Below, piece by piece: positions 169 to 29,481 of a stretch of DNA of 64,000 bases. Source of the stretch: Psilocybe cubensis (lineage: Eukaryota); the NCBI GenBank assembly GCA_017499595.2, contig JAFIQS020000017.1:1-64000 (forward strand), written 5' to 3'. The translations under genes and the position numbers were made by a program. A model generated the notes under the pieces. The model was not told where the DNA came from and ran no database searches. It worked only from the letters and a program-made list of their open reading frames with translations. Every line of letters begins with the position of its first letter. The first letter of the stretch is position 1.

Positions 169-723
169 AGCCCTAACCTAACCCCAACCCTAAGCTAACT
201 AAGTCTAACCTTAGTAGGAAGTAAGGTAGGCGTGTGAACTTCCGAAAGGCATGTGATTGTGAAGGGCCGGATCTAATTTAGTACATGGGAAAAGTTACTT
301 AGTACCTCGGGAAAAGTTCCTTAGTACCGTGGAAACATTTTTGATGGACCGGATCATGAACTGTCCAATTAAGATTCACAACAATCAATCAATTGATTGT
401 TAGGTAAGGACCCAGGTAAGCTATTTATACTCTTGACATGAGAATATTCCCATGTCACGGTTACTCGGAGCCACGTAACCAGAGTATTTTATATCCATGT
501 GATTCACATCACAGTCAATAACCCACGATGTCAAAGAACAAAAGTGTTGGATCCACTTTTGACAGGTTACCATGTGCCACATCGACCCGTGACACTCTGT
601 TCATCAGAGATCTGTCTAACTTGACAATAAACATTGACAGATTTGTGATAGTCGGTAAGATACATGACAGCTGCGCAGCATCACTTCACGCGCTGTCATC
701 GGATGTTCCAGAACATTCCTTCT

Positions 724-1728
724 AAGAATAGCCACTGAAGAGTCTATAAAGACGAAAGGGCTGGCTGCTGATAACAATCAACAGCCCTCAAGTACTCGTC
801 CTCTCCCAAACTCCTGCCGCTTGTGCCTTCCCAACTCATCCGGGAGCCCTTTCGTCACTGATCTTGCCCTTGACTCGGGGACGTTTCATCGACATGTTGG
901 CTGCCTCACGGCAAGCGGGGCCCTTTTTCTTTCACTCGCTCACGCCTTCTATGTTGGGTTACGGAGGTCATACAAACTCGTTTTAGTCTAGCTGCGGGGT
1001 TATCCAGCTATGATGACTTTGTAATTCGAGGGCGCGCAGTTCTTCAATGGGTATGGACATCAGGTGAGAGTACACTGGGGGTTGTCAGGACCAGCTCTGC
1101 TGGATACGCTCCTGGCAAGTCGGTTGCAGCCGGCGACACTACCGAATTGCTGGGACGTCCTAAAGCTTGTGGGTACCGCCGACCGCTGGAAACAGCCTAG
1201 GCACCGGTGGCGACCGGGTATGGTAACAATCCCCAAGATTCAGCGAAAGCTGGAATGGATAATCAGCAGCGAATCCGTAACGGTCACGCCGACGGAAGCG
1301 TTCAACGACTAGGTGGTAGTGGGGTCTTCGGATCTTAAGATATAGTCTTGGGAGTGGGGAAACCCACATCTGGTATCTAAACCGCGCCTCGCTGCTTACG
1401 AGGACGGCCCGAAGTCCAGAACCGCTTAAAACGCGGGTGACCCGGCCTCCCCTTAGTAAAGGGAGTTAACACAAGGATGGACAAATAGTTCGTCGCCGGA
1501 AATGAACCTGTGGCTGTAATGGCTGATGTGGCGCCCCTTGGTAAAGGGCTTAAAGGGTATTAGCCTGCCATGTCCAATGGCATGAGAGTGTCCCTTGGTA
1601 AAGGACTTAATAGGCAATAGCCTGCTCTTTTGTCATGAGCGGTATGTAGTGATCGTTTGCCTGTACGGTAGCGCCCATTGCTTGCACTGGTCCACGCCCG
1701 TAAAAAATCACGAGCCGCTGGCCTTCTT
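724..1728 (+). ncRNA. Hammerhead ribozyme split by a group I intron (halves 724-788 and 1718-1728)
   Basis: GCCA-CTGAAGA-GTCT/ATAA/AGAC-GAAA-GGGCTG...CAGCCC-T | insert | C-TGGC. Joining the halves reproduces the intact copy at 6064-6139. Confidence 0.9.
789..1717 (+). mobile_element. Group I intron, subgroup IC1-like, 929 nt (copy 1)
   Basis: Boundaries are defined by comparison with empty units: exon ends in U, intron ends in G. IGS GGGGTTGT (1078-1085) pairs with exon ACAGCCCT (781-788) with the U.G wobble. P AATTGCTGGGA 1145-1155, Q AATCAGCAGC 1261-1270, R GTTCAACGACTA 1300-1311, S AAGATATAGTCT 1337-1348. P3 CACTACC/GGTAGTG, P8 with TTCG loop, P9 GTGGG-GAAA-CCCAC, P5b GCTG-GAAA-CAGC. Confidence 0.93.
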
Positions 1729-1829
1729 TCCATTTAACTCACAGTTTAAACAAGTCGCTCGCACCTCGCTTCGCTCGGTGCTCGCTCCCCCCCTAAACCC
1801 AACGACTTTGCTATTACCCAACAGCTACT

Positions 1830-4800
1830 ATGTCTTCCACTTACTCTGCTGCCTTCTCTCGTGCCATGTCCCCCACCCTGGACGCACTCACCCAGGCTGT
1901 CGTCAACAACACAGTTTTTGGCGTCAACGACGAAGCTGGCCGCCACAACGCCCTCATCGACGAGTTGGCCACTGTCGTCATCAAGAAAATAGCTGAGTGC
2001 CGCTCCATTGACCAGATTGTAGACTGCGTCTTTTTTGACTATCGTGCTGCCCTTAGGGAGTTTCTCCTCAACCTCGCATCGTGGTGCGATAAGAGGGAAA
2101 CAGTCAAGGCTAGCCTCGAGCGCCTTGAACTTGCCGTTAGCGCAGGCAACACCCCCAATCGCCTTCGGGTGAAGGCTCCCGAGTTCCAACTTACGAAGGA
2201 ATTCGCGGATGCCGGGTCAGCGGAAGCTCTTCGAGTTTCCTCTACGTTCTCCACCGCTCGTGATGTCTTCCAAAAGGCAATCAACGACGGCGCCATTCAG
2301 GCGAAAAAGGACGAACTGGCCTTTTGGGATGATAAATGCGCACTCAATAACTGTTATGAAGCTGCTGCCCTCATCGTTAAGACAACTTACGATGATCGCA
2401 AATCCAGCTATAAGCTCCCCGTTTTCTCTACAGACAACAAGGGAGTTCGTCGAATAACAGATTGGGTAGTGTCACCGCAGAAGAAGGCTGAATGCAGCGC
2501 ATTGCAAACCATTTTGCCAGCCATCTTCTCTCATATCAAACAGATTGTCAACTTGCGCCACCGCGCTTTGGCAATCAAGATTGAGAAAAAGCGGTCGACT
2601 GCGGCAACAGCCGATGTCGAGATGGCCGATGCGACCAAACCAGGTCCATCGATTCAATCCCTTATTGATAAGGGCTTGAATGCACGTCTCAAGAAGCTCA
2701 ACCTTGGATCTGTGGGCAAGAAGGCAAGTTCTCGTAACCCTTCACCCATAACTCTGGATACTAATTACTATTCTAATTACCCAGACTTTGTCTGGCCAGA
2801 ATTCGTCCAAGGCTCCTCAACCTCAGGCCAAGAAAGCTGGCCCTTCGAAATTCAAACCCTCGTCGACGCCTTCGCAGAAGAAGCCCCAAACCAAGGCTTC
2901 CAACAAGGTCGACAACAAGAAGAAAGGGAAGGGGAGAGCTCCCGTCAAGAACGATCCAAAGGGAAAGGGAAAGGCAAGAGCCTAGACGCGCGGTCTAATG
3001 TAGTACCTTTTACGTCGGTAAGACCCGCCTTCCCCAACTCTATTCCTGACGATATACTCACCATGACTAAAACAGACGCAGTTTCTTTTGTACACTTACA
3101 TACGCCGATCTCATTCTTGTTGGCTGGCCAGTATCGTAGTAGTGTACACTGTAGTCCTGGTGTGGTGGTCCCTGTAGATATAGCAAATGATTTGTCACTC
3201 GGACTCAATTATATGTTTTTTACTCTACCTTCTCAAAGTCTGATCATGCAAGCATGGAATGATTTTCAACGAAGAATAAGATGGCGTATCTATTTTTTGT
3301 TTAAGGAAGGCATGAACAAACCTTTTGATCCAGATTACGGAGTAAGCTCAAAAAAGAAAGAGAAACCTCCAGTATTACCGCAATACATGGAACTTGGCCT
3401 TTCGATGGGACGTCGGTACGTGCAACGCACGATCGCAAGTATCCCGGAAGAAGCCCTTACGGAGATGCGAAAGCACGCGTTCTCTCCTAAAAGGGACAAG
3501 ATCCGTAAGTTTCTTATCGATAACAACTATGTTATTACGATGACAGATAAGAATCTTGGCCTCGCGGTGTCTGAACGCGACTGGATATTAAGGAATGAGC
3601 TCAATCTTCTTAAAGATGAACGTAACTATGAAGAGTTAGAATTCGAAGTTGCGCAAGAAGTAATGAAGAGCAAAATGATCCAGATGCAAACTCTTGCACA
3701 TACCGTCGAAGATGAACATCTGTTTCTATTTGAACTTGGGTTGTCTCGATTCTTTCTATCGAATGTACCGGAAGACGGATCATCGTTCAAGTACCCTCAA
3801 TTTCATGGTATACCTAAAATCCACAAAAAACCTACTGGATTTAGGCCCATAATTCCGTGTCACTCTGTAGTATTTAATCCTGCAGCCAAGTTTGTATCAA
3901 AAGAGCTTAAGCCGATTATTAAATCGACTCCTTCAATCATTCACGGAACGAAGGATCTCTTTACGAGATTAAGCCAATTGCGTATAGACCCCAAACGACA
4001 ATGGTATTTTGTCACCGGGGATGTAGTTGCTTTCTATCCCAATATTCCGTTGGACTTGTGCATCGAAATCGTTTGTAATATGTACGAGGAATGGTTACTC
4101 AACGCTTCGGAAGAAAACACTGCATTAGCCCATATTAATCCAAATTCGTTAGAGAATAACTTGGTTAAATTGGGCATCTTTAAACGTGCTATCGAGATTG
4201 GCAATACGCAATTGATAACACAACATGGGTCTAGATATTTTAGACAAAAAAATGGCCTCGCAATGGGCGTCGCGGATTCTCCGGACCTTGCTAACCTCTT
4301 TGGAGCCCATTTTGAAATAAAGTCAAAAATCTTAGACCACCCAAACGTGGCCTTCTATGGAAGGTACATCGACGATTGTTTCGCAATTGTTTACGCCGAG
4401 TCCGAAGCACTTGCACTTAATCTTATTAAAGAAACAATAAAGTTCGATGGTTGTGTTATCGAATGGGCTGTTTCCTCGTCGGGATGTCAATTTCTCGATG
4501 CTTTCATATTCAAGGAGTCTGGAAAACTTCATTGGAAGCCATTTGTCAAGACAGGAAACAACCGAGAACGAGTTCCATGGGTATCACATCATCCTTTGGA
4601 CGTCAAACGTGGCGTCTACATTGGAGAGTTATCCAGGTTAGCCGTGCTATGTAGTACCAAGGAAATCTACATCGGAGCAATTAGAGACCTTAACGCTCTC
4701 TATTTGATGCGCGGTTATCCCGAAAACCTAGTCATGTCTTGGTGTAAGAAGAATATACAAGAACGTTGGGAAAAGCGATTCGCTTTACGAGTCGCAGAGC

Positions 4801-5360
4801 ACGACGAATCCATTCTTGTACTTAAAACCAGATTTGATCAGGTATGGAATTGGTTTTCAGCTGCTGAACTTGGAAAAACTGTTACCGAGTACTGGTCGGC
4901 ATGGTATGAACATGCCGAGAAAGGTTTGTATAGTGCAGACTCGTCCAGACCCCTTATCAAACCAGATCCAAATTACGTTCACGACCTCGATGATGTTCGC
5001 CCGGAGCTGTTCACACAGATCCTCGTGGACGGAGAAACTGAGTTCGTACCGGATTTGAGGAAGATAGGACTACTCGGAAGTCGTTGGATAGTATCGCGAA
5101 AACGCAATACTAATCTTTTCGACCTTGCAAATGTGTGGAAGAAAACAGTCTTTCGTAAACTGGATGAAGACATCGCTGAAAAAGGTGGTGTTGTTCCCGA
5201 AACTCAAAACGTTAATGAAACTTATCATTCTGCTTTAGTTGAAGCTGCTGAACAGATAAGTATCGAAAGTGATAACGAGATAATACTTCATAGACGTTCA
5301 ATCTCACAAGAGAGGGAACATCCAGAATTCGGCAGAATATCCAAATCTTACAACCGATGA
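1830..5360 (+). CDS. Penelope-like ORF1-reverse transcriptase polyprotein, 1176 aa, subfamily A (copy 1)
   Basis: HGIPKIHKKPTGFRPII, FVTGDVVAFYPNI (motif A), QKNGLAMGVADSPDLANLF (B), YGRYIDDCF (C), FLD, thumb region RGYP. Helical N-terminal region; no endonuclease domain. Confidence 0.93.
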   Translation: MSSTYSAAFSRAMSPTLDALTQAVVNNTVFGVNDEAGRHNALIDELATVVIKKIAECRSIDQIVDCVFFDYRAALREFLLNLASWCDKRETVKASLERLELAVSAGNTPNRLRVKAPEFQLTKEFADAGSAEALRVSSTFSTARDVFQKAINDGAIQAKKDELAFWDDKCALNNCYEAAALIVKTTYDDRKSSYKLPVFSTDNKGVRRITDWVVSPQKKAECSALQTILPAIFSHIKQIVNLRHRALAIKIEKKRSTAATADVEMADATKPGPSIQSLIDKGLNARLKKLNLGSVGKKASSRNPSPITLDTNYYSNYPDFVWPEFVQGSSTSGQESWPFEIQTLVDAFAEEAPNQGFQQGRQQEEREGESSRQERSKGKGKGKSLDARSNVVPFTSVRPAFPNSIPDDILTMTKTDAVSFVHLHTPISFLLAGQYRSSVHCSPGVVVPVDIANDLSLGLNYMFFTLPSQSLIMQAWNDFQRRIRWRIYFLFKEGMNKPFDPDYGVSSKKKEKPPVLPQYMELGLSMGRRYVQRTIASIPEEALTEMRKHAFSPKRDKIRKFLIDNNYVITMTDKNLGLAVSERDWILRNELNLLKDERNYEELEFEVAQEVMKSKMIQMQTLAHTVEDEHLFLFELGLSRFFLSNVPEDGSSFKYPQFHGIPKIHKKPTGFRPIIPCHSVVFNPAAKFVSKELKPIIKSTPSIIHGTKDLFTRLSQLRIDPKRQWYFVTGDVVAFYPNIPLDLCIEIVCNMYEEWLLNASEENTALAHINPNSLENNLVKLGIFKRAIEIGNTQLITQHGSRYFRQKNGLAMGVADSPDLANLFGAHFEIKSKILDHPNVAFYGRYIDDCFAIVYAESEALALNLIKETIKFDGCVIEWAVSSSGCQFLDAFIFKESGKLHWKPFVKTGNNRERVPWVSHHPLDVKRGVYIGELSRLAVLCSTKEIYIGAIRDLNALYLMRGYPENLVMSWCKKNIQERWEKRFALRVAEHDESILVLKTRFDQVWNWFSAAELGKTVTEYWSAWYEHAEKGLYSADSSRPLIKPDPNYVHDLDDVRPELFTQILVDGETEFVPDLRKIGLLGSRWIVSRKRNTNLFDLANVWKKTVFRKLDEDIAEKGGVVPETQNVNETYHSALVEAAEQISIESDNEIILHRRSISQEREHPEFGRISKSYNR
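2724..2784 (+). other. Putative 61-nt GC-AG spliceosomal intron inside the ORF. Equivalents at 9539-9599, 14685-14745, 19827-19887, 25034-25094, 30376-30436
   Basis: AAG|GCAAGT donor, CTAAT branch-like motifs, CCAG| acceptor, and length typical of fungal introns. Splicing joins codon 298 in frame to the Lys-rich frame ending at 2985. Confidence 0.75.
2785..2985 (+). CDS. Alternative-frame exon 2 giving the basic C-terminal tail of a spliced ~364-aa ORF1 protein (1830-2723 + 2785-2985)
   Basis: TLSGQNSSKAPQPQAKKAGPSK...KKKGKGRAPVKNDPKGKGKARA*. Open in all six copies; the A/B difference includes an in-frame 3-nt indel and K/R swaps. Confidence 0.7.
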   Translation, partial: TLSGQNSSKAPQPQAKKAGPSKFKPSSTPSQKKPQTKASNKVDNKKKGKGRAPVKNDPKGKGKARA

Positions 5361-6063
5361 AAAGAATACTAGCGCGTAAGGCGTAAAGCATTAGAAAAAA
5401 ACCCTAACCGTAAGTATTCCTTGCTACAAAGTAACAAACATCTACTTACAAGCAACACATTGGATTAAATAGCTAAACCTAAACCTAAACCCTAAACCCT
5501 AAACCCTAAGCCCTAACCTAACCCCAACCCTAAGCTAACTAAGTCTAACCTTAGTAGGAAGTAAGGTAGGCGTGTGAACTTCCGAAAGGCATGTGATTGT
5601 GAAGGGCCGGATCTAATTTAGTACATGGGAAAAGTTACTTAGTACCTCGGGAAAAGTTCCTTAGTACCGTGGAAACATTTTTGATGGACCGGATCATGAA
5701 CTGTCCAATTAAGATTCACAACAATCAATCAATTGATTGTTAGGTAAGGACCCAGGTAAGCTATTTATACTCTTGACATGAGAATATTCCCATGTCACGG
5801 TTACTCGGAGCCACGTAACCAGAGTATTTTATATCCATGTGATTCACATCACAGTCAATAACCCACGATGTCAAAGAACAAAAGTGTTGGATCCACTTTT
5901 GACAGGTTACCATGTGCCACATCGACCCGTGACACTCTGTTCATCAGAGATCTGTCTAACTTGACAATAAACATTGACAGATTTGTGATAGTCGGTAAGA
6001 TACATGACAGCTGCGCAGCATCACTTCACGCGATGTCATCGGATGTTCCAGAACATTCCTTCT

Positions 6064-6139
6064 AAGAATAGCCACTGAAGAGTCTATAAAGACGAAAGGG
6101 CTGGCTGCTGATAACAATCAACAGCCCTCTGGCCTTCTT
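6064..6139 (+). ncRNA. Type I hammerhead ribozyme, intact (stem III variant A); predicted cleavage after C6129
   Basis: Stem I GCCA/TGGC extended by AAGAA/TTCTT, core CTGAAGA, stem II GTCT-ATAA-AGAC, GAAA, stem III GGGCTG/CAGCCC, then the T-C site. Confidence 0.92.
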
Positions 6140-6795
6140 TCCATTTAACTCACAGTTTAAACAAGTCGCTCGCACCTCGCTTCGCTCGGTGCTCGCTCCC
6201 CCCCTAAACCTAAACCCTAAACCCTAAACCCTAAACCCTAACCTAACCCCAACCCTAAGCTAACTAAGTCTAACCTTAGTAGGAAGTAAGGTAGGCGTGT
6301 GAACTTCCGAACGGCATGTGATTGTGAAGGGCCGGATCTAATTTAGTACATGGGAAAAGTTACTTAGTACTTCGGGAAAAGTTCCTTAGTACCGTGGAAA
6401 CATTTTTGATGGACCGGATCATGAACTGTCCAATTAAGATTCACAACAATCAATCATTCTATTGTTTGATTGTTAGGTAAGGACCCAGGTAAGCTATTTA
6501 TACTCTAGACATGTGAATATTCCCATGTCGCGGTTACTCGGAGCCACGTAACCAGAGTAATCTATATCCATGTGATTCACATCACAGTCAATAACCCACG
6601 ATGTCAAAGAACAAAAGTGTTGGATCCACTTTTGACAGGTTACCATGTGCCACATCGACCCGTGACACTCTGTTCATCAGAGACCTGTCTAACTTGACAA
6701 TAAACATTGACAGATTTGTGATAGTCGGTAAGATACATGACAGCTGCGCAGCATCACTTCACGCGCTGTCATCGGATGTCTAGAACATTCCTTCT

Positions 6796-7601: not shown

Positions 7602-8530
7602 CAAGTACTCGTCCTCTCCCAAACTCCTGCCGCTTGTGCCTTCCCAACTCATCCGGGAGCCCTTTCGTCACTGATCTTGCCCTTGACTCGGGGACGTTTC
7701 ATCGACATGTTGGCTGCCTCACGGCAAGCGGGGCCCTTTTTCTTTCACTCGCTCACGCCTTCTATGTTGGGTTACGGAGGTCATACAAACTCGTTTTAGT
7801 CTAGCTGCGGGGTTATCCAGCTATGATGACTTTGTAATTCGAGGGCGCGCAGTTCTTCAATGGGTATGGACATCAGGTGAGAGTACACTGGGGGTTGTCA
7901 GGACCAGCTCTGCTGGATACGCTCCTGGCAAGTCGGTTGCAGCCGGCGACACTACCGAATTGCTGGGACGTCCTAAAGCTTGTGGGTACCGCCGACCGCT
8001 GGAAACAGCCTAGGCACCGGTGGCGACCGGGTATGGTAACAATCCCCAAGATTCAGCGAAAGCTGGAATGGATAATCAGCAGCGAATCCGTAACGGTCAC
8101 GCCGACGGAAGCGTTCAACGACTAGGTGGTAGTGGGGTCTTCGGATCTTAAGATATAGTCTTGGGAGTGGGGAAACCCACATCTGGTATCTAAACCGCGC
8201 CTCGCTGCTTACGAGGACGGCCCGAAGTCCAGAACCGCTTAAAACGCGGGTGACCCGGCCTCCCCTTAGTAAAGGGAGTTAACACAAGGATGGACAAATA
8301 GTTCGTCGCCGGAAATGAACCTGTGGCTGTAATGGCTGATGTGGCGCCCCTTGGTAAAGGGCTTAAAGGGTATTAGCCTGCCATATCCAATGGCATGAGA
8401 GTGTCCCTTGGTAAAGGACTTAATAGGCAATAGCCTGCTCTTTTGTCATGAGCGGTATGTAGTGATCGTTTGCCTGTACGGTAGCGCCCATTGCTTGCAC
8501 TGGTCCACGCCCGTAAAAAATCACGAGCCG
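7602..8530 (+). mobile_element. Group I intron IC1-like, 929 nt (copy 2), interrupting the hammerhead that starts at 7537
   Basis: Same insertion point CAGCCCT|...GAGCCG|CTGGCC; near-identical to copy 1. Confidence 0.93.
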
Positions 8531-8644: not shown

Positions 8645-11600
8645 ATGTCATCCCAATACTCTGCTGCATTCTCTCGTGCCATGTCCCCTACCCTGGACGC
8701 ACTCACCCAGGCCGTCGTCAACAACACTGTCTTCGGCGTCAACGATGAAGCAGGCCGCCATAACGCTCTTATCGACGAGCTGGCCACTGTGGTCATCAAA
8801 AAAATAGCTGAGTGCCGCTCCGTTGACCAAGTCATAGACTGCGTCTTTTTTGACTATCGTGCTGCCCTCAGGGAGTTTCTCCTCAACCTCGCATCGTGGT
8901 GCGACAAGAGGGAAACAGTCAAGGCTAGCCTCGAGCGCCTTGAATCTGCCGTTAGCGCAGGCAACACGCCCAATCGCCTTAAGGTGAAGGCACCCGAGTT
9001 CCAACTTACGAAGGAATTCGCGGATGCCGGGTCAGCGGAGGCTCTTCGAGTCTCCACTACGTTCTCTTCCGCTCGTGATGCCTTCCAAAAGGCAATTAAC
9101 GACGGCGCCGTTCAGGCGAAAAAGGACGAGCTGGCTTTTTGGGATGATAAATGCGCACTCAACTCTTGCTACGAAGCTGCTGCCCTCATCGTTAAGGCAA
9201 CTTACGATGATCGCAAATCCAGCTACAAGCTCCCTGTTTTCTCTACAGACAACAAGGGAGTTCGACGTATAGCAGAGTGGGTAGTGTCTCCGCAAAAGAA
9301 AGCCGAATGCAGTGCGCTGCAAACTATACTGCCGGCGATCTTTTCTCATATCAAACAGATTGTCAACATGCGCCACCGCGCCTTGGCAATTAAGATTGAG
9401 AAAAAGCGGACGACTGCGGCAACAGCCGATGTCGAGATGGCCGATGCGACCAAACCAGGTCCATCGATTCAATCCCTTATTGATAAGGGCTTGAATGCAC
9501 GTCTCAAAAAGCTCAACCTTGGATCTGTGGGCAAGAAGGCAAGTTTTCGTAACCCTTCACCCATAATTCTGGACACTAATTATTACTCTAATTACCCAGA
9601 CTTTGTCTGGCCAGAATTCGTCCAAGGCTCCTCAACCTCAGGCCAGGAAAGCTGGCCCTTCGAAACCCAAGTCGTCGTCGACGCCTTCGCAGAGGAAGCC
9701 TCAAACCAAGGCTTCCAACAAGGTCGACAACAAGAAGAAAGGGAAGGGGAGAGCTCCCGTCAAGAACAACGATCCAAAGGGAAAGGGAAAGGCAAGAGCC
9801 TAGACGCGCGGTCTACTGTAGCATCATTTACGTCGGTGAGACCCGCCTTCCCCAACTCTATTCCTGACGATATACTCACCATGACTAAAACAGACGCAGT
9901 TTCTTTTGTACACCTCAATACCCCGATTTCATTCTTATTGGCTGGCCAGTATAGATCTAGTGTACACTGTAGTCCTGGTGTTTCGGTCCCTGTTGATGTA
10001 GCAAATGATTTATCTCTTGGACTCAATTATATGTTTTTTACACTGCCTTCTAAAAATCTGATCATGCAAGCATGGAATGATTTTCAACGAAGAATAAGAT
10101 GGCGTATCTATTTTTTGTTTAAAGAAGGCATGAATAAACCTTTCGATCCAGACTATGGAGTAAGCTCTAAAAAGAAAGAGAAACCTCCAATGTTACCGCA
10201 ATTTATGGAACTTGGCCTTTCAATGGGACGTCGGTACGTTATTAAAACGATCGCAAGTATCCCGGAAGAAGCCCTTAAAGAGATGCGAAAGCACGCGTTC
10301 TCTCCTAAAAGGGACAAGATCCAAAAGTTTCTTTTCGATAACAACTATGTTATTACGATGACAGATAAGAATCTTGGCCTCGCGGTGTCTGAACGCGACT
10401 GGATATTAAGGAATGAGCTCAATCTTCTTGAAGATGAACGCAACTACGAAGAGTTAGAATTCGAAGTTGCGCAAGAAGTTATGAAGAGCAAAATGATTCA
10501 GATGCAAACTCTCGCACGTACCGTCGAAGATGAACATCTGTTTCTATTTGAACTTGGGTTGTCTCGATTCTTTCTATCGAATGTACCGGAAGACGGATCA
10601 TCGTTCAAGTATCCTCAATTTCATGGTATACCTAAAATCCACAAGAAACCTACTGGATTTAGGCCCATAATTCCGTGTCACTCTGTAGTATTTAATCCTG
10701 CAGCCAAGTTTGTATCAAAAGAGCTTAAGCCGATTATTAAATCGACTCCTTCAATCATTCACGGAACGAAGGATCTCTTTACGAGATTAAGCCAATTGCG
10801 TATAGACCCCAAACGACAATGGTATTTTGTCACCGGGGATGTAGTTGCTTTCTATCCCAATATTCCGTTGGACTTGTGCATCGAAATCGTTTGTAATATG
10901 TACGAGGAATGGTTACTCAACGCTTCGGAAGAGAACACTGCATTAGCCCATATTAATCCAAATTCGTTAGAGAATAACTTGGTTAAATTGGGCATCTTTA
11001 AACGTGCTATCGAGATTGGCAATACGCAATTGATAACACAACATGGGTCTAGATATTTTAGACAAAAAAATGGCCTCGCAATGGGCGTCGCGGATTCTCC
11101 GGACCTTGCTAACCTCTTTGGAGCCCATTTTGAAATAAAGTCAAATATCTTAGACCACCCAAACGTGGCCTTCTATGGAAGGTACATCGACGATTGTTTC
11201 GCAATTGTTTACGCCGAGTCCGAAGCACTTGCACTTAATCTTATTAAAGAAACAATAAAGTTCGATGGTTGTGTTATCGAATGGGCTGTTTCCTCGTCGG
11301 GATGTCAATTTCTCGATGCTTTCATATTCAAGGAGTCTGGAAAACTTCATTGGAAGCCATTTGTCAAGACAGGAAACAACCGAGAACGAGTTCCATGGGT
11401 ATCACATCATCCTTTGGACGTCAAACGTGGCGTCTACATTGGAGAGTTATCCAGGTTAGCCGTGCTATGTAGTACCAAGGAAATCTACATCGGAGCAATT
11501 AGAGACCTTAACGCTCTCTATTTGATGCGCGGTTATCCCGAAAACCTAGTCATGTCTTGGTGTAAGAAGAATATACAAGAACGTTGGGAAAAGCGATTCG

Positions 11601-12178
11601 CTTTACGAGTCGCAGAGCACGACGAATCCATTCTTGTACTTAAAACCAGATTTGATCAGGTATGGAATTGGTTTTCAGCTGCTGAACTTGGAAAGACTGT
11701 TACCGAGTACTGGTCGGCATGGTATGAACATGCCGAGAAAGGTCTGTATAGTGCAGACTCGTCCAGACCCCTTATCAAACCAGATCCAAATTACGTTCAC
11801 GACCTCGATGATGTTCGCCCGGAGCTGTTCACACAGATCCTCGTGGACGGAGAAACTGAGTTCGTACCGGATTTGAGGAAGATAGGACTACTCGGAAGTC
11901 GTTGGATAGTATCGCGAAAGCGCAATACTAATCTTTTCGACCTTGCAAATGTGTGGAAGAAAACAGTTTTTCGTAAACTGGATGAAGACATTGCCGAAAA
12001 AGGTGGTGTTGTTCCCGAAACTCAAAACGTTAATGAAACTTATCATTCTGCTCTAGTTGAAGCTGCTGAACAGATAAGTATCGAAAGTGATAACGAGATA
12101 ATACTTCATAGACGTTCAATCTCACAAGAGAAGGAACATCCAGAATTCGGCAGAATATCCAAATCTTACAACCGATGA
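8645..12178 (+). CDS. Penelope-like ORF1-RT, 1177 aa, subfamily B (copy 2)
   Basis: Intact ORF with the same RT motifs (YIDD). N-terminus MSSQYS marks subfamily B. Confidence 0.93.
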   Translation: MSSQYSAAFSRAMSPTLDALTQAVVNNTVFGVNDEAGRHNALIDELATVVIKKIAECRSVDQVIDCVFFDYRAALREFLLNLASWCDKRETVKASLERLESAVSAGNTPNRLKVKAPEFQLTKEFADAGSAEALRVSTTFSSARDAFQKAINDGAVQAKKDELAFWDDKCALNSCYEAAALIVKATYDDRKSSYKLPVFSTDNKGVRRIAEWVVSPQKKAECSALQTILPAIFSHIKQIVNMRHRALAIKIEKKRTTAATADVEMADATKPGPSIQSLIDKGLNARLKKLNLGSVGKKASFRNPSPIILDTNYYSNYPDFVWPEFVQGSSTSGQESWPFETQVVVDAFAEEASNQGFQQGRQQEEREGESSRQEQRSKGKGKGKSLDARSTVASFTSVRPAFPNSIPDDILTMTKTDAVSFVHLNTPISFLLAGQYRSSVHCSPGVSVPVDVANDLSLGLNYMFFTLPSKNLIMQAWNDFQRRIRWRIYFLFKEGMNKPFDPDYGVSSKKKEKPPMLPQFMELGLSMGRRYVIKTIASIPEEALKEMRKHAFSPKRDKIQKFLFDNNYVITMTDKNLGLAVSERDWILRNELNLLEDERNYEELEFEVAQEVMKSKMIQMQTLARTVEDEHLFLFELGLSRFFLSNVPEDGSSFKYPQFHGIPKIHKKPTGFRPIIPCHSVVFNPAAKFVSKELKPIIKSTPSIIHGTKDLFTRLSQLRIDPKRQWYFVTGDVVAFYPNIPLDLCIEIVCNMYEEWLLNASEENTALAHINPNSLENNLVKLGIFKRAIEIGNTQLITQHGSRYFRQKNGLAMGVADSPDLANLFGAHFEIKSNILDHPNVAFYGRYIDDCFAIVYAESEALALNLIKETIKFDGCVIEWAVSSSGCQFLDAFIFKESGKLHWKPFVKTGNNRERVPWVSHHPLDVKRGVYIGELSRLAVLCSTKEIYIGAIRDLNALYLMRGYPENLVMSWCKKNIQERWEKRFALRVAEHDESILVLKTRFDQVWNWFSAAELGKTVTEYWSAWYEHAEKGLYSADSSRPLIKPDPNYVHDLDDVRPELFTQILVDGETEFVPDLRKIGLLGSRWIVSRKRNTNLFDLANVWKKTVFRKLDEDIAEKGGVVPETQNVNETYHSALVEAAEQISIESDNEIILHRRSISQEKEHPEFGRISKSYNR

Positions 12179-12958: not shown

Positions 12959-13610
12959 TCTATTTCAAACTCACAGTTTAAACTAGTCGCTCGCACCTCG
13001 CTTCGCTCGGTGCTCGCTCCCCCCCTAAACCCTAAACCCTAAACCCTAAACCCTAACCTAACCCCAACCCTAAGCTAACTAAGTCTAACCTTAGTAGGAA
13101 GTAAGGTAGGCGTGTGAACTTCCGAACGGCATGTGATTGTGAAGGGCCGGATCTAATTTAGTACATGGGAAAAGTTACTTAGTACTTCGGGAAAAGTTCC
13201 TTAGTACCGTGGAAACATTTTTGATGGACCGGATCATGAACTGTCCAATTAAGATTCACAACAATCAATCATTCTATTGTTTGATTGTTAGGTAAGGACC
13301 CAGGTAAGCTATTTATACTCTAGACATGTGAATATTCCCATGTCGCGGTTACTCGGAGCCACGTAACCAGAGTAATCTATATCCATGTGATTCACATCAC
13401 AGTCAATAACCCACGATGTCAAAGAACAAAAGTGTTGGATCCACTTTTGACAGGTTACCATGTGCCACATCGACCCGTGACACTCTGTTCATCAGAGACC
13501 TGTCTAACTTGACAATAAACATTGACAGATTTGTGATAGTCGGTAAGATACATGACAGCTGCGCAGCATCACTTCACGCGCTGTCATCGGATGTCTAGAA
13601 CATTCCTTCT

Positions 13611-13789: not shown

Positions 13790-16700
13790 ATGTCATCCCA
13801 ATACTCTGCTGCATTCTCTCGTGCCATGTCCCCTACCCTGGACGCACTCACCCAGGCCGTCGTCAACAACACTGTCTTCGGCGTCAACGATGAAGCAGGC
13901 CGCCATAACGCTCTTATCGACGAGCTGGCCACTGTGGTCATCAAAAAAATAGCTGAGTGCCGCTCCGTTGACCAAGTCATAGACTGCGTCTTTTTTGACT
14001 ATCGTGCTGCCCTCAGGGAGTTTCTCCTCAACCTCGCATCGTGGTGCGACAAGAGGGAAACAGTCAAGGCTAGCCTCGAGCGCCTTGAATCTGCCGTTAG
14101 CGCAGGCAACACGCCCAATCGCCTTAAGGTGAAGGCACCCGAGTTCCAACTTACGAAGGAATTCGCGGATGCCGGGTCAGCGGAGGCTCTTCGAGTCTCC
14201 ACTACGTTCTCTTCCGCTCGTGATGCCTTCCAAAAGGCAATTAACGACGGCGCCGTTCAGGCGAAAAAGGACGAGCTGGCTTTTTGGGATGATAAATGCG
14301 GCGCTCAACTCTTGCTACGAAGCTGCTGCCCTCATCGTTAAGGCAACTTACGATGATCGCAAATCCAGCTACAAGCTCCCTGTTTTCTCTACAGACAACA
14401 AGGGAGTTCGACGTATAGCAGAGTGGGTAGTGTCTCCGCAAAAGAAAGCCGAATGCAGTGCGCTGCAAACTATACTGCCGGCGATCTTTTCTCATATCAA
14501 ACAGATTGTCAACATGCGCCACCGCGCCTTGGCAATTAAGATTGAGAAAAAGCGGACGACTGCGGCAACAGCCGATGTCGAGATGGCCGATGCGACCAAA
14601 CCAGGTCCATCGATTCAATCCCTTATTGATAAGGGCTTGAATGCACGTCTCAAAAAGCTCAACCTTGGATCTGTGGGCAAGAAGGCAAGTTTTCGTAACC
14701 CTTCACCCATAATTCTGGACACTAATTATTACTCTAATTACCCAGACTTTGTCTGGCCAGAATTCGTCCAAGGCTCCTCAACCTCAGGCCAGGAAAGCTG
14801 GCCCTTCGAAACCCAAGTCGTCGTCGACGCCTTCGCAGAGGAAGCCTCAAACCAAGGCTTCCAACAAGGTCGACAACAAGAAGAAAGGGAAGGGGAGAGC
14901 TCCCGTCAAGAACAACGATCCAAAGGGAAAGGGAAAGGCAAGAGCCTAGACGCGCGGTCTACTGTAGCATCATTTACGTCGGTGAGACCCGCCTTCCCCA
15001 ACTCTATTCCTGACGATATACTCACCATGACTAAAACAGACGCAGTTTCTTTTGTACACCTCAATACCCCGATTTCATTCTTATTGGCTGGCCAGTATAG
15101 ATCTAGTGTACACTGTAGTCCTGGTGTTTCGGTCCCTGTTGATGTAGCAAATGATTTATCTCTTGGACTCAATTATATGTTTTTTACACTGCCTTCTAAA
15201 AATCTGATCATGCAAGCATGGAATGATTTTCAACGAAGAATAAGATGGCGTATCTATTTTTTGTTTAAAGAAGGCATGAATAAACCTTTCGATCCAGACT
15301 ATGGAGTAAGCTCTAAAAAGAAAGAGAAACCTCCAATGTTACCGCAATTTATGGAACTTGGCCTTTCAATGGGACGTCGGTACGTTATTAAAACGATCGC
15401 AAGTATCCCGGAAGAAGCCCTTAAAGAGATGCGAAAGCACGCGTTCTCTCCTAAAAGGGACAAGATCCAAAAGTTTCTTTTCGATAACAACTATGTTATT
15501 ACGATGACAGATAAGAATCTTGGCCTCGCGGTGTCTGAACGCGACTGGATATTAAGGAATGAGCTCAATCTTCTTGAAGATGAACGCAACTACGAAGAGT
15601 TAGAATTCGAAGTTGCGCAAGAAGTTATGAAGAGCAAAATGATTCAGATGCAAACTCTCGCACGTACCGTCGAAGATGAACATCTGTTTCTATTTGAACT
15701 TGGGTTGTCTCGATTCTTTCTATCGAATGTACCGGAAGACGGATCATCGTTCAAGTATCCTCAATTTCATGGTATACCTAAAATCCACAAGAAACCTACT
15801 GGATTTAGGCCCATAATTCCGTGTCACTCTGTAGTATTTAATCCTGCAGCCAAGTTTGTATCAAAAGAGCTTAAGCCGATTATTAAATCGACTCCTTCAA
15901 TCATTCACGGAACGAAGGATCTCTTTACGAGATTAAGCCAATTGCGTATAGACCCCAAACGACAATGGTATTTTGTCACCGGGGATGTAGTTGCTTTCTA
16001 TCCCAATATTCCGTTGGACTTGTGCATCGAAATCGTTTGTAATATGTACGAGGAATGGTTACTCAACGCTTCGGAAGAGAACACTGCATTAGCCCATATT
16101 AATCCAAATTCGTTAGAGAATAACTTGGTTAAATTGGGCATCTTTAAACGTGCTATCGAGATTGGCAATACGCAATTGATAACACAACATGGGTCTAGAT
16201 ATTTTAGACAAAAAAATGGCCTCGCAATGGGCGTCGCGGATTCTCCGGACCTTGCTAACCTCTTTGGAGCCCATTTTGAAATAAAGTCAAAAATCTTAGA
16301 CCACCCAAACGTGGCCTTCTATGGAAGGTACATCGACGATTGTTTCGCAATTGTTTACGCCGAGTCCGAAGCACTTGCACTTAATCTTATTAAAGAAACA
16401 ATAAAGTTCGATGGTTGTGTTATCGAATGGGCTGTTTCCTCGTCGGGATGTCAATTTCTCGATGCTTTCATATTCAAGGAGTCTGGAAAACTTCATTGGA
16501 AGCCATTTGTCAAGACAGGAAACAACCGAGAACGAGTTCCATGGGTATCACATCATCCTTTGGACGTCAAACGTGGCGTCTACATTGGAGAGTTATCCAG
16601 GTTAGCCGTGCTATGTAGTACCAAGGAAATCTACATCGGAGCAATTAGAGACCTTAACGCTCTCTATTTGATGCGCGGTTATCCCGAAAACCTAGTCATG

Positions 16701-17324
16701 TCTTGGTGTAAGAAGAATATACAAGAACGTTGGGAAAAGCGATTCGCTTTACGAGTCGCAGAGCACGACGAATCCATTCTTGTACTTAAAACCAGATTTG
16801 ATCAGGTATGGAATTGGTTTTCAGCTGCTGAACTTGGAAAGACTGTTACCGAGTACTGGTCGGCATGGTATGAACATGCCGAGAAAGGTTTGTATAGTGC
16901 AGACTCGTCCAGACCCCTTATCAAACCAGATCCAAATTACGTTCACGACCTCGATGATGTTCGCCCGGAGCTGTTCACACAGATCCTCGTGGACGGAGAA
17001 ACTGAGTTCGTACCGGATTTGAGGAAGATAGGACTACTCGGAAGTCGTTGGATAGTATCGCGAAAACGCAATACTAATCTTTTCGACCTTGCAAATGTGT
17101 GGAAGAAAACAGTCTTTCGTAAACTGGATGAAAACATCGCTGAAAAAGGTGGTGTTGTTCCCGAAACTCAAAACGTTAATGAAACTTATCATTCTGCTTT
17201 AGTTGAAGCTGCTGAACAGATAAGTATCGAAAGTGATAACGAGATAATACTTCATAGACGTTCAATCTCACAAGAGAGGGAACATCCAGAATTCGGCAGA
17301 ATATCCAAATCTTACAACCGATGA
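13790..17324 (+). pseudogene. Penelope-like ORF1-RT, subfamily B, +1 frameshift near 14300 (copy 3)
   Basis: AAATGCGGCGCTCAAC versus AAATGCGCACTCAAC in copy 2. The ORF splits into 13790-14341 and 14169-17324. Confidence 0.88.
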
Positions 17325-18932: not shown

Positions 18933-21900
18933 ATGTCTTCCACTTACTCTGCTGCCTTCTCTCGTGCCATGTCCCCCACCCTGGACGCACTCACCCAGGC
19001 TGTCGTCAACAACACAGTTTTTGGCGTCAACGACGAAGCTGGCCGCCACAACGCCCTCATCGACGAGTTGGCCACTGTCGTCATCAAGAAAATAGCTGAG
19101 TGCCGCTCCATTGACCAGATTGTAGACTGCGTCTTTTTTGACTATCGTGCTGCCCTTAGGGAGTTTCTCCTCAACCTCGCATCGTGGTGCGATAAGAGGG
19201 AAACAGTCAAGGCTAGCCTCGAGCGCCTTGAACTTGCCGTTAGCGCAGGCAACACCCCCAATCGCCTTCGGGTGAAGGCTCCCGAGTTCCAACTTACGAA
19301 GGAATTCGCGGATGCCGGGTCAGCGGAAGCTCTTCGAGTTTCCTCTACGTTCTCCACCGCTCGTGATGTCTTCCAAAAGGCAATCAACGACGGCGCCATT
19401 CAGGCGAAAAAGGACGAACTGGCCTTTTGGGATGATAAATGCGCACTCAATAACTGTTATGAAGCTGCTGCCCTCATCGTTAAGACAACTTACGATGATC
19501 GCAAATCCAGCTATAAGCTCCCCGTTTTCTCTACAGACAACAAGGGAGTTCGTCGAATAACAGATTGGGTAGTGTCACCGCAGAAGAAGGCTGAATGCAG
19601 CGCATTGCAAACCATTTTGCCAGCCATCTTCTCTCATATCAAACAGATTGTCAACTTGCGCCACCGCGCTTTGGCAATCAAGATTGAGAAAAAGCGGTCG
19701 ACTGCGGCAACAGCCGATGTCGAGATGGCCGATGCGACCAAACCAGGTCCATCGATTCAATCCCTTATTGATAAGGGCTTGAATGCACGTCTCAAGAAGC
19801 TCAACCTTGGATCTGTGGGCAAGAAGGCAAGTTCTCGTAACCCTTCACCCATAATTCTGGATACTAATTACTATTCTAATTACCCAGACTTTGTCTGGCC
19901 AGAATTCGTCCAAGGCTCCTCAACCTCAGGCCAAGAAAGCTGGCCCTTCGAAATTCAAACCCTCGTCGACGCCTTCGCAGAAGAAGCCCCAAACCAAGGC
20001 TTCCAACAAGGTCGACAACAAGAAGAAAGGGAAGGGGAGAGCTCCCGTCAAGAACGATCCAAAGGGAAAGGGAAAGGCAAGAGCCTAGACGCGCGGTCTA
20101 ATGTAGTACCTTTTACGTCGGTAAGACCCGCCTTCCCCAACTCTATTCCTGACGATATACTCACCATGACTAAAACAGACGCAGTTTCTTTTGTACACTT
20201 ACATACGCCGATCTCATTCTTGTTGGCTGGCCAGTATCGTAGTAGTGTACACTGTAGTCCTGGTGTGGTGGTCCCTGTAGATATAGCAAATGATTTGTCA
20301 CTCGGACTCAATTATATGTTTTTTACTCTGCCTTCTCAAAGTCTGATCATGCAAGCATGGAATGATTTTCAACGAAGAATAAGATGGCGTATCTATTTTT
20401 TGTTTAAGGAAGGCATGAACAAACCTTTTGATCCAGATTACGGAGTAAGCTCAAAAAAGAAAGAGAAACCTCCAGTATTACCGCAATACATGGAACTTGG
20501 CCTTTCGATGGGACGTCGGTACGTGCAACGCACGATCGCAAGTATCCCGGAAGAAGCCCTTACGGAGATGCGAAAGCACGCGTTCTCTCCTAAAAGGGAC
20601 AAGATCCGTAAGTTTCTTATCGATAACAACTATGTTATTACGATGACAGATAAGAATCTTGGCCTCGCGGTGTCTGAACGCGACTGGATATTAAGGAATG
20701 AGCTCAATCTTCTTGAAGATGAACGTAACTATGAAGAGTTAGAATTCGAAGTTGCGCAAGAAGTAATGAAGAGCAAAATGATCCAGATGCAAACTCTTGC
20801 ACGTACCGTCGAAGATGAACATCTGTTTCTATTTGAACTTGGGTTGTCTCGATTCTTTCTATCGAATGTACCGGAAGACGGATCATCGTTCAAGTATCCT
20901 CAATTTCATGGTATACCTAAAATCCACAAAAAACCTACTGGATTTAGACCCATAATTCCGTGTCACTCTGTAGTATTTAATCCTGCAGCCAAGTTTGTAT
21001 CAAAAGAGCTTAAGCCGATTATTAAATCGACTCCTTCAATCATTCACGGAACGAAGGATCTCTTTACGAGATTAAGCCAATTGCGTATAGACCCCAAACG
21101 ACAATGGTATTTTGTCACCGGGGATGTAGTTGCTTTCTATCCCAATATTCCGTTGGACTTGTGCATCGAAATCGTTTGTAATATGTACGAGGAATGGTTA
21201 CTCAACGCTTCGGAAGAAAACACTGCATTAGCCCATATTAATCCAAATTCGTTAGAGAATAACTTGGTTAAATTGGGCATCTTTAAACGTGCTATCGAGA
21301 TTGGCAATACGCAATTGATAACACAACATGGGTCTAGATATTTTAGACAAAAAAATGGCCTCGCAATGGGCGTCGCGGATTCTCCGGACCTTGCTAACCT
21401 CTTTGGAGCCCATTTTGAAATAAAGTCAAAAATCTTAGACCACCCAAACGTGGCCTTCTATGGAAGGTACATCGACGATTGTTTCGCAATTGTTTACGCC
21501 GAGTCCGAAGCACTTGCACTTAATCTTATTAAAGAAACAATAAAGTTCGATGGTTGTGTTATCGAATGGGCTGTTTCCTCGTCGGGATGTCAATTTCTCG
21601 ATGCTTTCATATTCAAGGAGTCTGGAAAACTTCATTGGAAGCCATTTGTCAAGACAGGAAACAACCGAGAACGAGTTCCATGGGTATCACATCATCCTTT
21701 GGACGTCAAACGTGGCGTCTACATTGGAGAGTTATCCAGGTTAGCCGTGCTATGTAGTACCAAGGAAATCTACATCGGAGCAATTAGAGACCTTAACGCT
21801 CTCTATTTGATGCGCGGTTATCCCGAAAACCTAGTCATGTCTTGGTGTAAGAAGAATATACAAGAACGTTGGGAAAAGCGATTCGCTTTACGAGTCGCAG

Positions 21901-22463
21901 AGCACGACGAATCCATTCTTGTACTTAAAACCAGATTTGATCAGGTATGGAATTGGTTTTCAGCTGCTGAACTTGGAAAAACTGTTACCGAGTACTGGTC
22001 GGCATGGTATGAACATGCCGAGAAAGGTTTGTATAGTGCAGACTCGTCCAGACCCCTTATCAAACCAGATCCAAATTACGTTCACGACCTCGATGATGTT
22101 CGCCCGGAGCTGTTCACACAGATCCTCGTGGACGGAGAAACTGAGTTCGTACCGGATTTGAGGAAGATAGGACTACTCGGAAGTCGTTGGATAGTATCGC
22201 GAAAACGCAATACTAATCTTTTCGACCTTACAAATGTGTGGAAGAAAACAGTCTTTCGTAAACTGGATGAAGACATCGCTGAAAAAGGTGGTGTTGTTCC
22301 CGAAACTCAAAACGTTAATGAAACTTATCATTCTGCTTTAGTTGAAGCTGCTGAACAGATAAGTATCGAAAGTGATAACGAGATAATACTTCATAGACGT
22401 TCAATCTCACAAGAGAGGGAACATCCAGAATTCGGCAGAATATCCAAATCTTACAACCGATGA
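18933..22463 (+). CDS. Penelope-like ORF1-RT, 1176 aa, subfamily A (copy 4)
   Basis: Intact ORF with RT motifs. Confidence 0.93.
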   Translation: MSSTYSAAFSRAMSPTLDALTQAVVNNTVFGVNDEAGRHNALIDELATVVIKKIAECRSIDQIVDCVFFDYRAALREFLLNLASWCDKRETVKASLERLELAVSAGNTPNRLRVKAPEFQLTKEFADAGSAEALRVSSTFSTARDVFQKAINDGAIQAKKDELAFWDDKCALNNCYEAAALIVKTTYDDRKSSYKLPVFSTDNKGVRRITDWVVSPQKKAECSALQTILPAIFSHIKQIVNLRHRALAIKIEKKRSTAATADVEMADATKPGPSIQSLIDKGLNARLKKLNLGSVGKKASSRNPSPIILDTNYYSNYPDFVWPEFVQGSSTSGQESWPFEIQTLVDAFAEEAPNQGFQQGRQQEEREGESSRQERSKGKGKGKSLDARSNVVPFTSVRPAFPNSIPDDILTMTKTDAVSFVHLHTPISFLLAGQYRSSVHCSPGVVVPVDIANDLSLGLNYMFFTLPSQSLIMQAWNDFQRRIRWRIYFLFKEGMNKPFDPDYGVSSKKKEKPPVLPQYMELGLSMGRRYVQRTIASIPEEALTEMRKHAFSPKRDKIRKFLIDNNYVITMTDKNLGLAVSERDWILRNELNLLEDERNYEELEFEVAQEVMKSKMIQMQTLARTVEDEHLFLFELGLSRFFLSNVPEDGSSFKYPQFHGIPKIHKKPTGFRPIIPCHSVVFNPAAKFVSKELKPIIKSTPSIIHGTKDLFTRLSQLRIDPKRQWYFVTGDVVAFYPNIPLDLCIEIVCNMYEEWLLNASEENTALAHINPNSLENNLVKLGIFKRAIEIGNTQLITQHGSRYFRQKNGLAMGVADSPDLANLFGAHFEIKSKILDHPNVAFYGRYIDDCFAIVYAESEALALNLIKETIKFDGCVIEWAVSSSGCQFLDAFIFKESGKLHWKPFVKTGNNRERVPWVSHHPLDVKRGVYIGELSRLAVLCSTKEIYIGAIRDLNALYLMRGYPENLVMSWCKKNIQERWEKRFALRVAEHDESILVLKTRFDQVWNWFSAAELGKTVTEYWSAWYEHAEKGLYSADSSRPLIKPDPNYVHDLDDVRPELFTQILVDGETEFVPDLRKIGLLGSRWIVSRKRNTNLFDLTNVWKKTVFRKLDEDIAEKGGVVPETQNVNETYHSALVEAAEQISIESDNEIILHRRSISQEREHPEFGRISKSYNR

Positions 22464-23242: not shown

Positions 23243-23307
23243 TCCATTTAACTCACAGTTTAAACAAGTCGCTCGCACCTCGCTTCGCTCGGTGCTCGCT
23301 CCCCCCC

Positions 23308-29369: not shown

Positions 29370-29481
29370 CTGGCCTTCTTTCCATTTAACTCACAGTTTA
29401 AACAAGTCGCTCGCACCTCGCTTCGCTCGGTGCTCGCTCCCCCCCTAAACCCAACGACTTTGCTATTACCCAACAGCTACC

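Follow-up and report, generated by a model that had tools for sequence, protein, structure and literature searches.

In the 64,000-nucleotide stretch of Psilocybe cubensis DNA analysed here (the window: positions 1 to 64,000 of the forward strand of contig JAFIQS020000017.1, assembly GCA_017499595.2), an array of telomere-attaching Penelope-like retroelements carries twelve copies of a hammerhead ribozyme, three of which are interrupted by a 929-nucleotide (nt) insertion. We favour, at a probability of roughly two in three and on the ground of sequence comparison, the reading that a group I intron without an open reading frame (ORF) colonised the 5′ leader of such an element, that it travels there as a mobile passenger, and that its splicing gates the hammerhead. 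The larger finding to which the comparisons point is a nuclear group I intron outside ribosomal DNA (rDNA), which divides a hammerhead in two and is of recent spread, and whose homologues are present in related elements, namely in the metagenome loci labelled L072, L070, L053 and L064 below. The parts on which the argument depends are as follows.

735–757, + strand: hammerhead catalytic core (CUGAAGA 735–741, GAA 754–756, A15.1 at 757), one of 12 identical copies
757–788, + strand: hammerhead helix III (757–763/782–788) with the A variant of its loop (764–781); its 3′ strand is the 5′-exon strand of P1
781–797, + strand: 5′ strand of P1 (exon 781–788, splice site between U788 and C789, intron 789–790, extension 792–797)
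789–1717, + strand: group I intron, 929 nt, terminal G at 1717 (RF00028, 73.0 bits, E = 1.3e-16; delimited by intron-less copies)
798–1067, + strand: insertion in the P1 loop (L1), 270 nt, partly conserved with L072 intron 1
1068–1085, + strand: 3′ strand of P1, the extension GAGUAC (1068–1073) followed by the internal guide sequence
1086–1369, + strand: P2/P2.1 region and catalytic core P3–P9 (structure line of the cmscan alignment)
1370–1717, + strand: 3′ peripheral extension in which CCCUUGGUAAAGGG-type hairpins recur; conservation extends to L072 intron 1 and L070
1718–1728, + strand: start of the 3′ exon, with C17 at 1718 and the helix I 3′ strand (UGGC 1719–1722, UUCUU 1724–1728)
6061–6139, + strand: example of a complete intron-less hammerhead (core 6075)
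7602–8530, + strand: second intron copy, in a B-variant hammerhead (core 7548)
28441–29369, + strand: third intron copy, in a B′-variant hammerhead (core 28387), with mosaic flanks

The three copies of the insertion match the group I intron family RF00028 with 73.0, 73.0 and 70.9 bits (E = 1.3e-16 to 5.6e-16), the gathering score being 50 bits. Within the core, P3 is formed by 1137–1144/1314–1321, P4 by 1148–1153/1263–1268 and P9 by 1354–1367 with a GAAA loop, and P7 can be read directly from the sequence as GACUA (1307–1311) with UAGUC (1343–1347). The J8/7-P7 motif AAGAUAUAGUC and the GAAA loop of P9 presumably mark a resemblance to IC1 introns such as that of Tetrahymena. The junctions were located by alignment of the six hammerhead copies that precede an ORF and by inspection of all twelve. 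Three hammerheads (cores 735, 7548 and 28387) read ...CAGCCCT↓CAAGTACTCG... (the arrow marks the junction), the other nine read ...CAGCCCT↓CTGGCCTTC..., i.e., CAGCCCT↓CTGGCC, and the insert ends in ...CACGAGCCG↓CTGGCC. The C found on both sides leaves a one-base ambiguity, which a single choice settles with a U at the end of the 5′ exon and a G at the end of the intron. Since nine exact intron-less copies fix the junction, the 5′ splice site is placed after U788 and the terminal G at 1717, and excision of 789–1717 predicts, at the DNA level, exactly the CAGCCCT↓CTGGCC of the intron-less copies.

The guide GGGGUUGU (1078–1085) pairs with exon bases 781–788, and U1076 and G1077 pair with intron bases 789–790, so that P1 (781–790/1076–1085) consists of 10 contiguous pairs, including G784·U1082 and the splice-site wobble U788·G1078. 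A 1 × 2 internal loop follows, and then the extension 792–797/1068–1073, which the sequence-only reading of this DNA had already described and which both the sequence and the ViennaRNA fold confirm. P1 is found in the minimum-energy fold of 700–1135 of the distal copy, with a duplex energy of −22.3 kcal/mol. When the 460 nt upstream were scanned, the guide was also seen to pair with the intron-internal segments 1012–1020 and 1036–1044 (8–9 contiguous pairs, G·U allowed). The complementarity of the guide alone is thus not unique, and it is the exact intron-less copies that are decisive. Both additional sites lie in the P1 loop and may be a decoy, circularisation sites or chance matches. Judged by its core, the U·G wobble at the end of the 5′ exon and the terminal G, the 929-nt insert is a group I intron. 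It contains no sense ORF of at least 40 amino acids (aa), the ATG-initiated ORFs above that length (69 and 57 aa) being on the minus strand only, and homing by an endonuclease of the intron's own making is excluded on that account.

The sequence that receives the intron is a hammerhead, whose 29-base core occurs twelve times in the window with zero mismatches, where none would be expected. Helix II of the core is formed by 742–744/751–753 around the loop 745–750, and the 5′ strand of helix I is provided by AAGAA (724–728) and GCCA (731–734). Helix III has 7 bp, A757–U788 and 758–763 with 782–787; A781 pairs in P1 only. Besides the example with its core at 6075, intron-less cores lie at 6807, 12894, 13622, 18046, 18767, 23178, 23973 and 33726, and in the intron-less copies 19 of 19 helix pairs are canonical (GCCA/UGGC and AAGAA/UUCUU in helix I, GUC/GAC in helix II, 7 bp in helix III). 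Minimum-energy folding does not return the hammerhead three-way junction, either for the window or for related hammerheads, and for this reason covariation was relied on. Eighty related metagenome loci yielded 48 hammerhead instances, 41 of them distinct. Among these 41 the core is invariant, the 15.1–16.1 pair is always A-U, and position H17 is U in 18, C in 14, A in 9 and G in none (G was excluded by the parser). Helix I forms 3.90 of 5 pairs with its true partners against a mean of 2.58 with permuted ones (maximum 3.15 in 1000 permutations); the parser mis-set helix III in several hammerheads, those of the window included, and the excess in helix I holds regardless. Each of the three helices shows several Watson-Crick pair types per position; in helix II these are GC at the first position, UA, CG, AU and GC at the second, and CG and UA at the third. 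Taken together, core and covariation indicate that this is a genuine type-I hammerhead. Hammerheads of fungal Penelope-like elements, type I and with a large helix III, have been described, together with an in vitro analysis of the self-cleavage of one of them (PMC4209133, as far as the available excerpts go).

The position of the intron relative to this ribozyme is exact, between U16.1 and C17. C17 and the entire 3′ strand of helix I form the first 11 bases of the 3′ exon, 929 nt away, and the AAGUAC that follows C789 in the precursor does not pair with the 5′ strand of helix I. The unspliced RNA thus has the hammerhead core with helices II and III and lacks helix I, and the hammerhead in it is incomplete. 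Removal of 789–1717 restores the canonical hammerhead, in which the cut is expected between 1718 and 1719, one base beyond the point of ligation. As the hammerhead becomes complete only when the exons have been ligated, splicing should gate its cleavage. The sequence-only reading saw that helix III can hide the splice site and missed this dependence of the hammerhead on splicing.

Its starting observation was that one exon segment can pair either with the 5′ strand of helix III or with the guide of the intron. This is borne out by the sequence, with the boundaries drawn as above (helix III 782–788/757–763, A781 in P1 only): of the eight exon bases that P1 uses, seven belong to helix III as well and, by this shared strand, the two helices are judged mutually exclusive. 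Its further suggestion, that the local hairpin forms first during transcription, is reproduced in silico, as in growing transcripts up to 1067 bases 782–786 stay in the local hairpin and P1 appears at 1090. From these two points it was inferred that the competition is a built-in switch that sets the rate of splicing and might be tuned differently by the A and B variants of helix III. The predicted stabilities of the isolated hairpin indeed differ (A −11.5, B −17.6, B′ −14.0 kcal/mol), the B loop lengthening helix III through UUGGG/CCCAA, and the predicted ground state flips between A and B. In the 436-nt context of A (700–1135) P1 is in the ground state at −144.5 kcal/mol, against −135.8 kcal/mol with helix III forced. 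On such modelled energies a tuned switch is plausible; they are, however, nearest-neighbour predictions on fragments, which ignore tertiary structure and the docking of P1. Other comparisons speak against selection for a switch. The A, B and B′ loops each occur with and without the intron, and equally so in the intron-less copies that make up 9 of the 12, where helix III itself is also the same; the GGG...CCC tip of the B type is the common form of helix III in intron-less relatives. Among the 41 distinct hammerheads of these loci there is no intron between U16.1 and H17, and homologous introns sit elsewhere, 4 and 13 nt past the cut, near the leader hairpin or in coding sequence. As the loop variants are shared by intron-less copies and relatives, loop variation is a property of the hammerhead's own lineage rather than an adaptation to the intron, and the overlap of helix III with P1 follows automatically from the site of insertion. 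The predicted difference in hairpin strength is in favour of an influence of the flanks on the speed of splicing; an evolved switch we regard as doubtful.

The order of events that we propose instead would begin with helix III, or a slipped local hairpin, which would form first during transcription. After a further 290 nt the guide sequence would emerge, and the longer, extended P1 would displace helix III. The intron would then splice out, and the ligated exons would refold into the hammerhead, to be cut after C17. The strength of helix III would in this scheme only modulate how fast the splicing gate opens. As for spread, the intron would enter element RNA by guide-directed reverse splicing and be fixed by the element's own reverse transcriptase (RT), with template switching as an alternative route, and it would be lost whenever spliced RNA gets copied.

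That the intron has moved recently is suggested by comparison of the window copies. Intron copies 1 and 2 differ at 1 of 929 positions; between copy 3 and these two, the differences number 1 and 2. The surroundings of copies 1 and 2 differ at 18 of 592 positions in the upstream repeat, at 77 of 927 in the next 929 nt downstream and at 82 of 2666 further downstream, which is a host divergence of 3–8%, and the divergence of the intron is lower than this by a factor of 30 to 80. Because the intron is so much less diverged than the sequence around it, either recent copying between diverged elements or local homogenisation has to be assumed. In DNA contigs from three runs of one study both the junction of intron and hammerhead and the intron-less junction are present. 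Since these runs share two differences from the window intron (902 T>C and 1000 T>A), the intron is polymorphic between isolates. Over window positions 600–1900 the same runs also show further loop variants of helix III on intron-less junctions. The third copy (27800–30300) has an upstream repeat that is B-like (6 mismatches to copy 2 and 16 to copy 1), and its downstream 929 nt are A-like (1 mismatch to copy 1 and 76 to copy 2), a mosaic that points to recombination or template switching at the intron or within it. No telomere tract precedes the ORF that follows this repeat, which thus serves both the upstream and the downstream unit.

Of the 80 related loci, many of which lack the leader, 4 have homologues of the intron according to a profile built on it, each of the four having one in its leader. 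L072 has two introns, with scores of 72.8 and 76.5 bits, which are above the gathering score; L070 (39.6 bits), L053 (34.2) and L064 (31.6) fall below it, with E-values from 5e-7 to 1e-4 in a search of 22 kb. L072 intron 1 is inserted 13 nt past the hammerhead cut (1904/1905), as determined against the element's own intron-less 3′ copy. A splice site right after helix III (CUGUUAU/GUAGCAG) had been considered for this intron and was rejected on the evidence of that copy. The intron of L053 lies 4 nt past the cut (443/444), with guide GGUUAA against exon UUAACU. The intron of L064 is near the conserved leader hairpin, its 5′ splice site being mapped without confidence, and locus L070 ends inside its intron. 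At codon 9 the RT ORF of L072 is broken by intron 2 (2868–3926, 1059 nt). Taking this intron out, with U before the 5′ splice site and G at the 3′ end, opens a 1167-aa frame with 31% identity to the window protein over 1135 aa (E = 7e-159), and because the unspliced frame stops at codon 37, this intron must be spliced for RT to be made. It would be a group I intron in a protein-coding gene of nuclear type.

The guides of the window intron (GGGGGUUGU) and of L072 intron 2 (GGGGCUUGU) are nearly the same, and the target ..CAGCCCU↓C of the former resembles the target ..GCGUCCU↓C of the latter, at unrelated positions. Similar guides with similar targets at unrelated places are what reverse splicing predicts. 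An extended P1 can form in all four mapped introns (the window intron and three metagenome homologues), with differing sequences. These facts fit guide-directed reverse splicing followed by copying by the element's RT, as they would also fit template switching or gene conversion. For rDNA introns, reverse splicing and then reverse transcription has been proposed (PMC1299323, in the part of the text available). The mapped introns of leaders, in the window, L053 and L072, all lie within 14 nt of the scissile bond (−1, +4 and +13), the leader and repeat together being ~800 nt; this clustering could reflect target accessibility or selection for coupling to the hammerhead.

The element that hosts the intron is defined by the following features of its most distal unit and of the chromosome end.

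1–185, + strand: telomere tract of the chromosome end, C-rich strand, 7-mer CCCTAAA (TTTAGGG type), perfect 20 times at 4–143 and then degenerate
132–734, + strand: 5′ repeat region of the most distal unit (R, resembling a pseudo-long terminal repeat), up to the hammerhead (132–789 against reference 3755–4411, 99.7%)
1754–1800, + strand: leader hairpin with the loop CUCGCUUCGCUCG, then the telomere-complementary CCCCCCCTAAACCC at 1787–1800; R units end there against telomere repeats
1830–5360, + strand: RT ORF of the most distal unit, 1176 aa, with RT motifs and 97–99% identity to Psilocybe cubensis proteins

A head-to-tail array of such elements extends from the terminal (CCCTAAA)n tract to ~33,900 of the window and comprises six units, each with an ORF of ~1176 aa, of which four are intact and two frameshifted. 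The ORFs of the intron-bearing units (1830–5360, 8645–12178 and 29482–33012) are all intact; the intron-less full-length units have theirs at 13790–17324, 18933–22463 and 24139–27673, and two of these three are frameshifted at the same place (183 aa + 1051 aa). Between the units there are 2–15 copies of CCCTAAA (e.g., at 6215–6235, 13023–13050, 23305–23409 and 33853–33908), a varying number that records stepwise terminal additions with telomerase extension between them. Every unit ends at the telomere-complementary CCCCCCCTAAACCC, 84 nt past the hammerhead cut. The motifs PKIHK, YPNIP and YIDD of reverse transcriptases are found in the translated ORF. Its closest relatives are the Psilocybe cubensis proteins (97–99% identical) and then ~55 uncharacterised proteins, mostly from metagenome contigs of 4–6 kb, and homologues of the ORF carry a precomputed PF00078 record. 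A Pfam scan of the ORF at E ≤ 0.01 gave no family whatever, so neither a GIY-YIG nor an RT match, and a sequence search of the PDB gave no match.

Terminal head-to-tail attachment via a reverse-complement telomere stretch, with a hammerhead nearby, is the arrangement of Coprina-type elements, and the same architecture is described, in the excerpts available, for Coprina- and Athena-type Penelope-like elements and for fungal hammerheads (PMC8557442, PMC13159263, PMC4209133). The host is called here a putatively endonuclease-lacking, Coprina-like Penelope-like element because there is no endonuclease match, the telomere attachment is of the reverse-complement kind, and a type-I hammerhead with a large helix III stands in the flanking repeat; the name Coprina we infer from the agaric host and the architecture.

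The leader hairpin with its CUCGCUUCGCUCG loop is also seen in L072 (2755–2810 and 8262–8318), L053 (1545–1590), L064 (735–760) and L070 (745–775), and its stem covaries between lineages. The C-rich, telomere-complementary stretch follows the hairpin directly in the window, in L072 and in L053; in L064 the intron comes between the two, and in L070 the stretch is missing. At this site the integrated unit stops against telomere repeats, both in the window and at the 3′ end of L072. The conserved hairpin has the look of a module for RT binding or for marking the template boundary, and it recalls telomerase RNA. Beyond the array, a subtelomeric gene at 50587–53190 encodes an 867-aa ankyrin-repeat protein (Pfam Ank, E = 2.6e-90).

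Several observations weigh against the reading of the intron as a mobile passenger whose splicing gates the hammerhead. Splicing and hammerhead cleavage in this element are both processes that we infer from its sequence. In the 436-nt contexts equivalent to that of A, the B and B′ copies have the local hairpin in the predicted ground state and forcing P1 costs ~4 kcal/mol, so that on the modelled energies these intron copies might splice poorly. Minimum-energy folding of the spliced RNA favours a non-hammerhead fold by ~4 kcal/mol, and the hammerhead models of Rfam score below gathering (Hammerhead_3 at 19.5 bits, gathering 48.5; RAGATH-1-hammerhead at 23.0 bits, gathering 56.3); a long helix III with a short helix II is a poor fit to these library models. 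All 12 integrated copies hold an uncut hammerhead with both sides present, hence the templates of retrotransposition were not cleaved there. The near-identity of the intron copies could stem from local gene conversion, copy 3 having mosaic flanks, and the copies without an intron could represent ancestral sites that it never entered and need not have arisen by splicing, although the boundaries are fixed either way. The non-hammerhead fold can be located in the intron-less RNA (6130–6150), where CUGGCCUUCUUUC of the 3′ exon can pair with GAAAGGGCUGG of the core region; this fold might represent an inactive state of the RNA and so hold back self-cleavage.

Some of these points would also suit an inactive relic, an insertion that is never removed and simply disables the hammerhead, the intron-less copies being the untouched ancestral state. 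The preference of the B-type copies for the local hairpin over P1 is in keeping with this, as is the P1 of L072 intron 1, which is imperfect (−13.4 kcal/mol). A relic would nevertheless hardly have an intact core scoring well over the Rfam gathering threshold together with canonical boundary nucleotides, and three copies that are 1–2 in 929 apart, in hosts 3–8% apart, require recent copying independent of the flanks. Moreover, the newest unit carries the intron, and the homologous intron in the L072 ORF must be spliced for RT. We consider a dead insertion highly improbable.

The intron as a passenger that gates the hammerhead may be set against a more far-reaching proposal, in which it has been co-opted as a regulator: its retention would shield the full-length template RNA, and splicing would free RNA for hammerhead trimming, to be translated or degraded. 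Such a partition of fates would be like that of unspliced and spliced retroviral RNAs, and unspliced RNA, having no helix I, would be uncuttable at this place. Three integrated full-length units, among them the most distal and hence newest, would have been copied from unspliced RNA; the RT ORF is intact in 3 of 3 intron-bearing against 1 of 3 intron-less full-length units, the intron occupies 3 of the 6 hammerheads that immediately precede an ORF and 0 of the 6 others, and the introns of relatives cluster around the cut, as described. These numbers are tiny, however (one-sided Fisher P of ~0.09 for 3/6 against 0/6), and intron-less units with an intact, uncut hammerhead, 9 of the 12, were copied equally well. 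The intron is found in only 4 of the 80 related loci, though many of these are without leader, and in the three DNA runs the depth of intron words is ~3–15% of that of the flanking repeat, contig depth being a poor measure. Co-option as a regulator appears unlikely to us. Somewhat less doubtful, and still put forward tentatively as falling short of even odds, is the idea that Coprina-like elements and ORF-less group I introns form a mobility partnership, in which the intron would reverse splice at guide matches, be it the helix III strand as in the window or, as in relatives, positions +4 and +13 from the cut, the leader hairpin and RT codon 9, the element's telomerase-like RT would write the copy at the chromosome end, and retention or splicing would decide between a whole template and a hammerhead-cut RNA.

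How does this arrangement compare with known systems? With the nuclear group I introns of rDNA (Tetrahymena large-subunit, fungal small- and large-subunit genes) the window intron shares a P3–P9 core with an RF00028 score above gathering, the pairing of the guide with the 5′ exon, the splice-site U·G wobble, the terminal G, and the P2/P2.1, P5 and P9 extensions. It differs from them in its host, which is not rDNA but a telomeric retrotransposon whose leader it occupies (in a relative, RT coding sequence), in a very large P1 loop of 270 nt and in having no homing-endonuclease ORF. In the available parts of two reviews, every known nuclear group I intron is said to interrupt rRNA genes (PMC3679873, PMC8395846). 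The hammerheads of fungal and protist telomere-associated Penelope-like elements are likewise type I with a large helix III, and likewise lie in the repeat that flanks the RT ORF, adjoining reverse-complement telomere repeats, with a stable monomeric fold (Cervera and de la Peña, 2014; PMC4209133). Unlike those, 3 of the 12 hammerheads here have a group I intron that separates U16.1 from C17, a situation which the excerpts of that paper do not mention. Penelope-like elements that retain introns despite replicating through RNA have been reported with spliceosomal introns (Arkhipova et al., 2003, as cited in the available part of PMC4209133); in the present case the intron is a self-splicing group I intron. 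In the accessible portions of two papers on these elements, the term "group I intron" is used only with reference to GIY-YIG homing endonucleases (PMC8557442, PMC4209133). The literature search brought up no Penelope-like, Coprina or basidiomycete retroelement for which a group I intron is reported (supplements lay outside it, and priority is not certain). The parts, i.e., group I intron, fungal Penelope-like hammerhead and telomere-attaching element, are known, and their combination looks new.

Two further systems are close in logic. The twin-ribozyme introns of Didymium and Naegleria likewise have two ribozymes in one transcript, ordered by alternative conformations, the difference being that there a lariat-capping ribozyme derived from group I sits within a group I intron and serves the mRNA of a homing endonuclease, whereas here a group I intron sits within the hammerhead of a retroelement; no lariat-capping family of Rfam matched positions 400–1900 at E up to 10. 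In the Tetrahymena pre-rRNA, as Woodson and Cech reportedly found in the early 1990s, a hairpin of the 5′ exon, P(−1), competes with P1 and slows self-splicing. The competition of helix III with P1 would follow the same logic, with the difference that here the competitor is a functional helix of a second, ligation-dependent ribozyme.

How group I introns get to new sites when no homing endonuclease is at work is a long-standing question, for which reverse splicing combined with reverse transcription is the favoured idea, without a natural system that holds all the parts. The nuclear retrotransposon described here supplies a reverse transcriptase to its intron, which is found at several guide-matched sites in related elements, and would be, if the reading is true, the first natural setting in which the spread of group I introns by reverse splicing can be followed directly. 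No other natural ribozyme that splits another was found in the literature search, and the order of events in this one would be obligatory: splice, refold, cleave. For the study of Penelope-like elements, and of what the hammerhead does in them, the intron would provide a natural on/off allele of that ribozyme.

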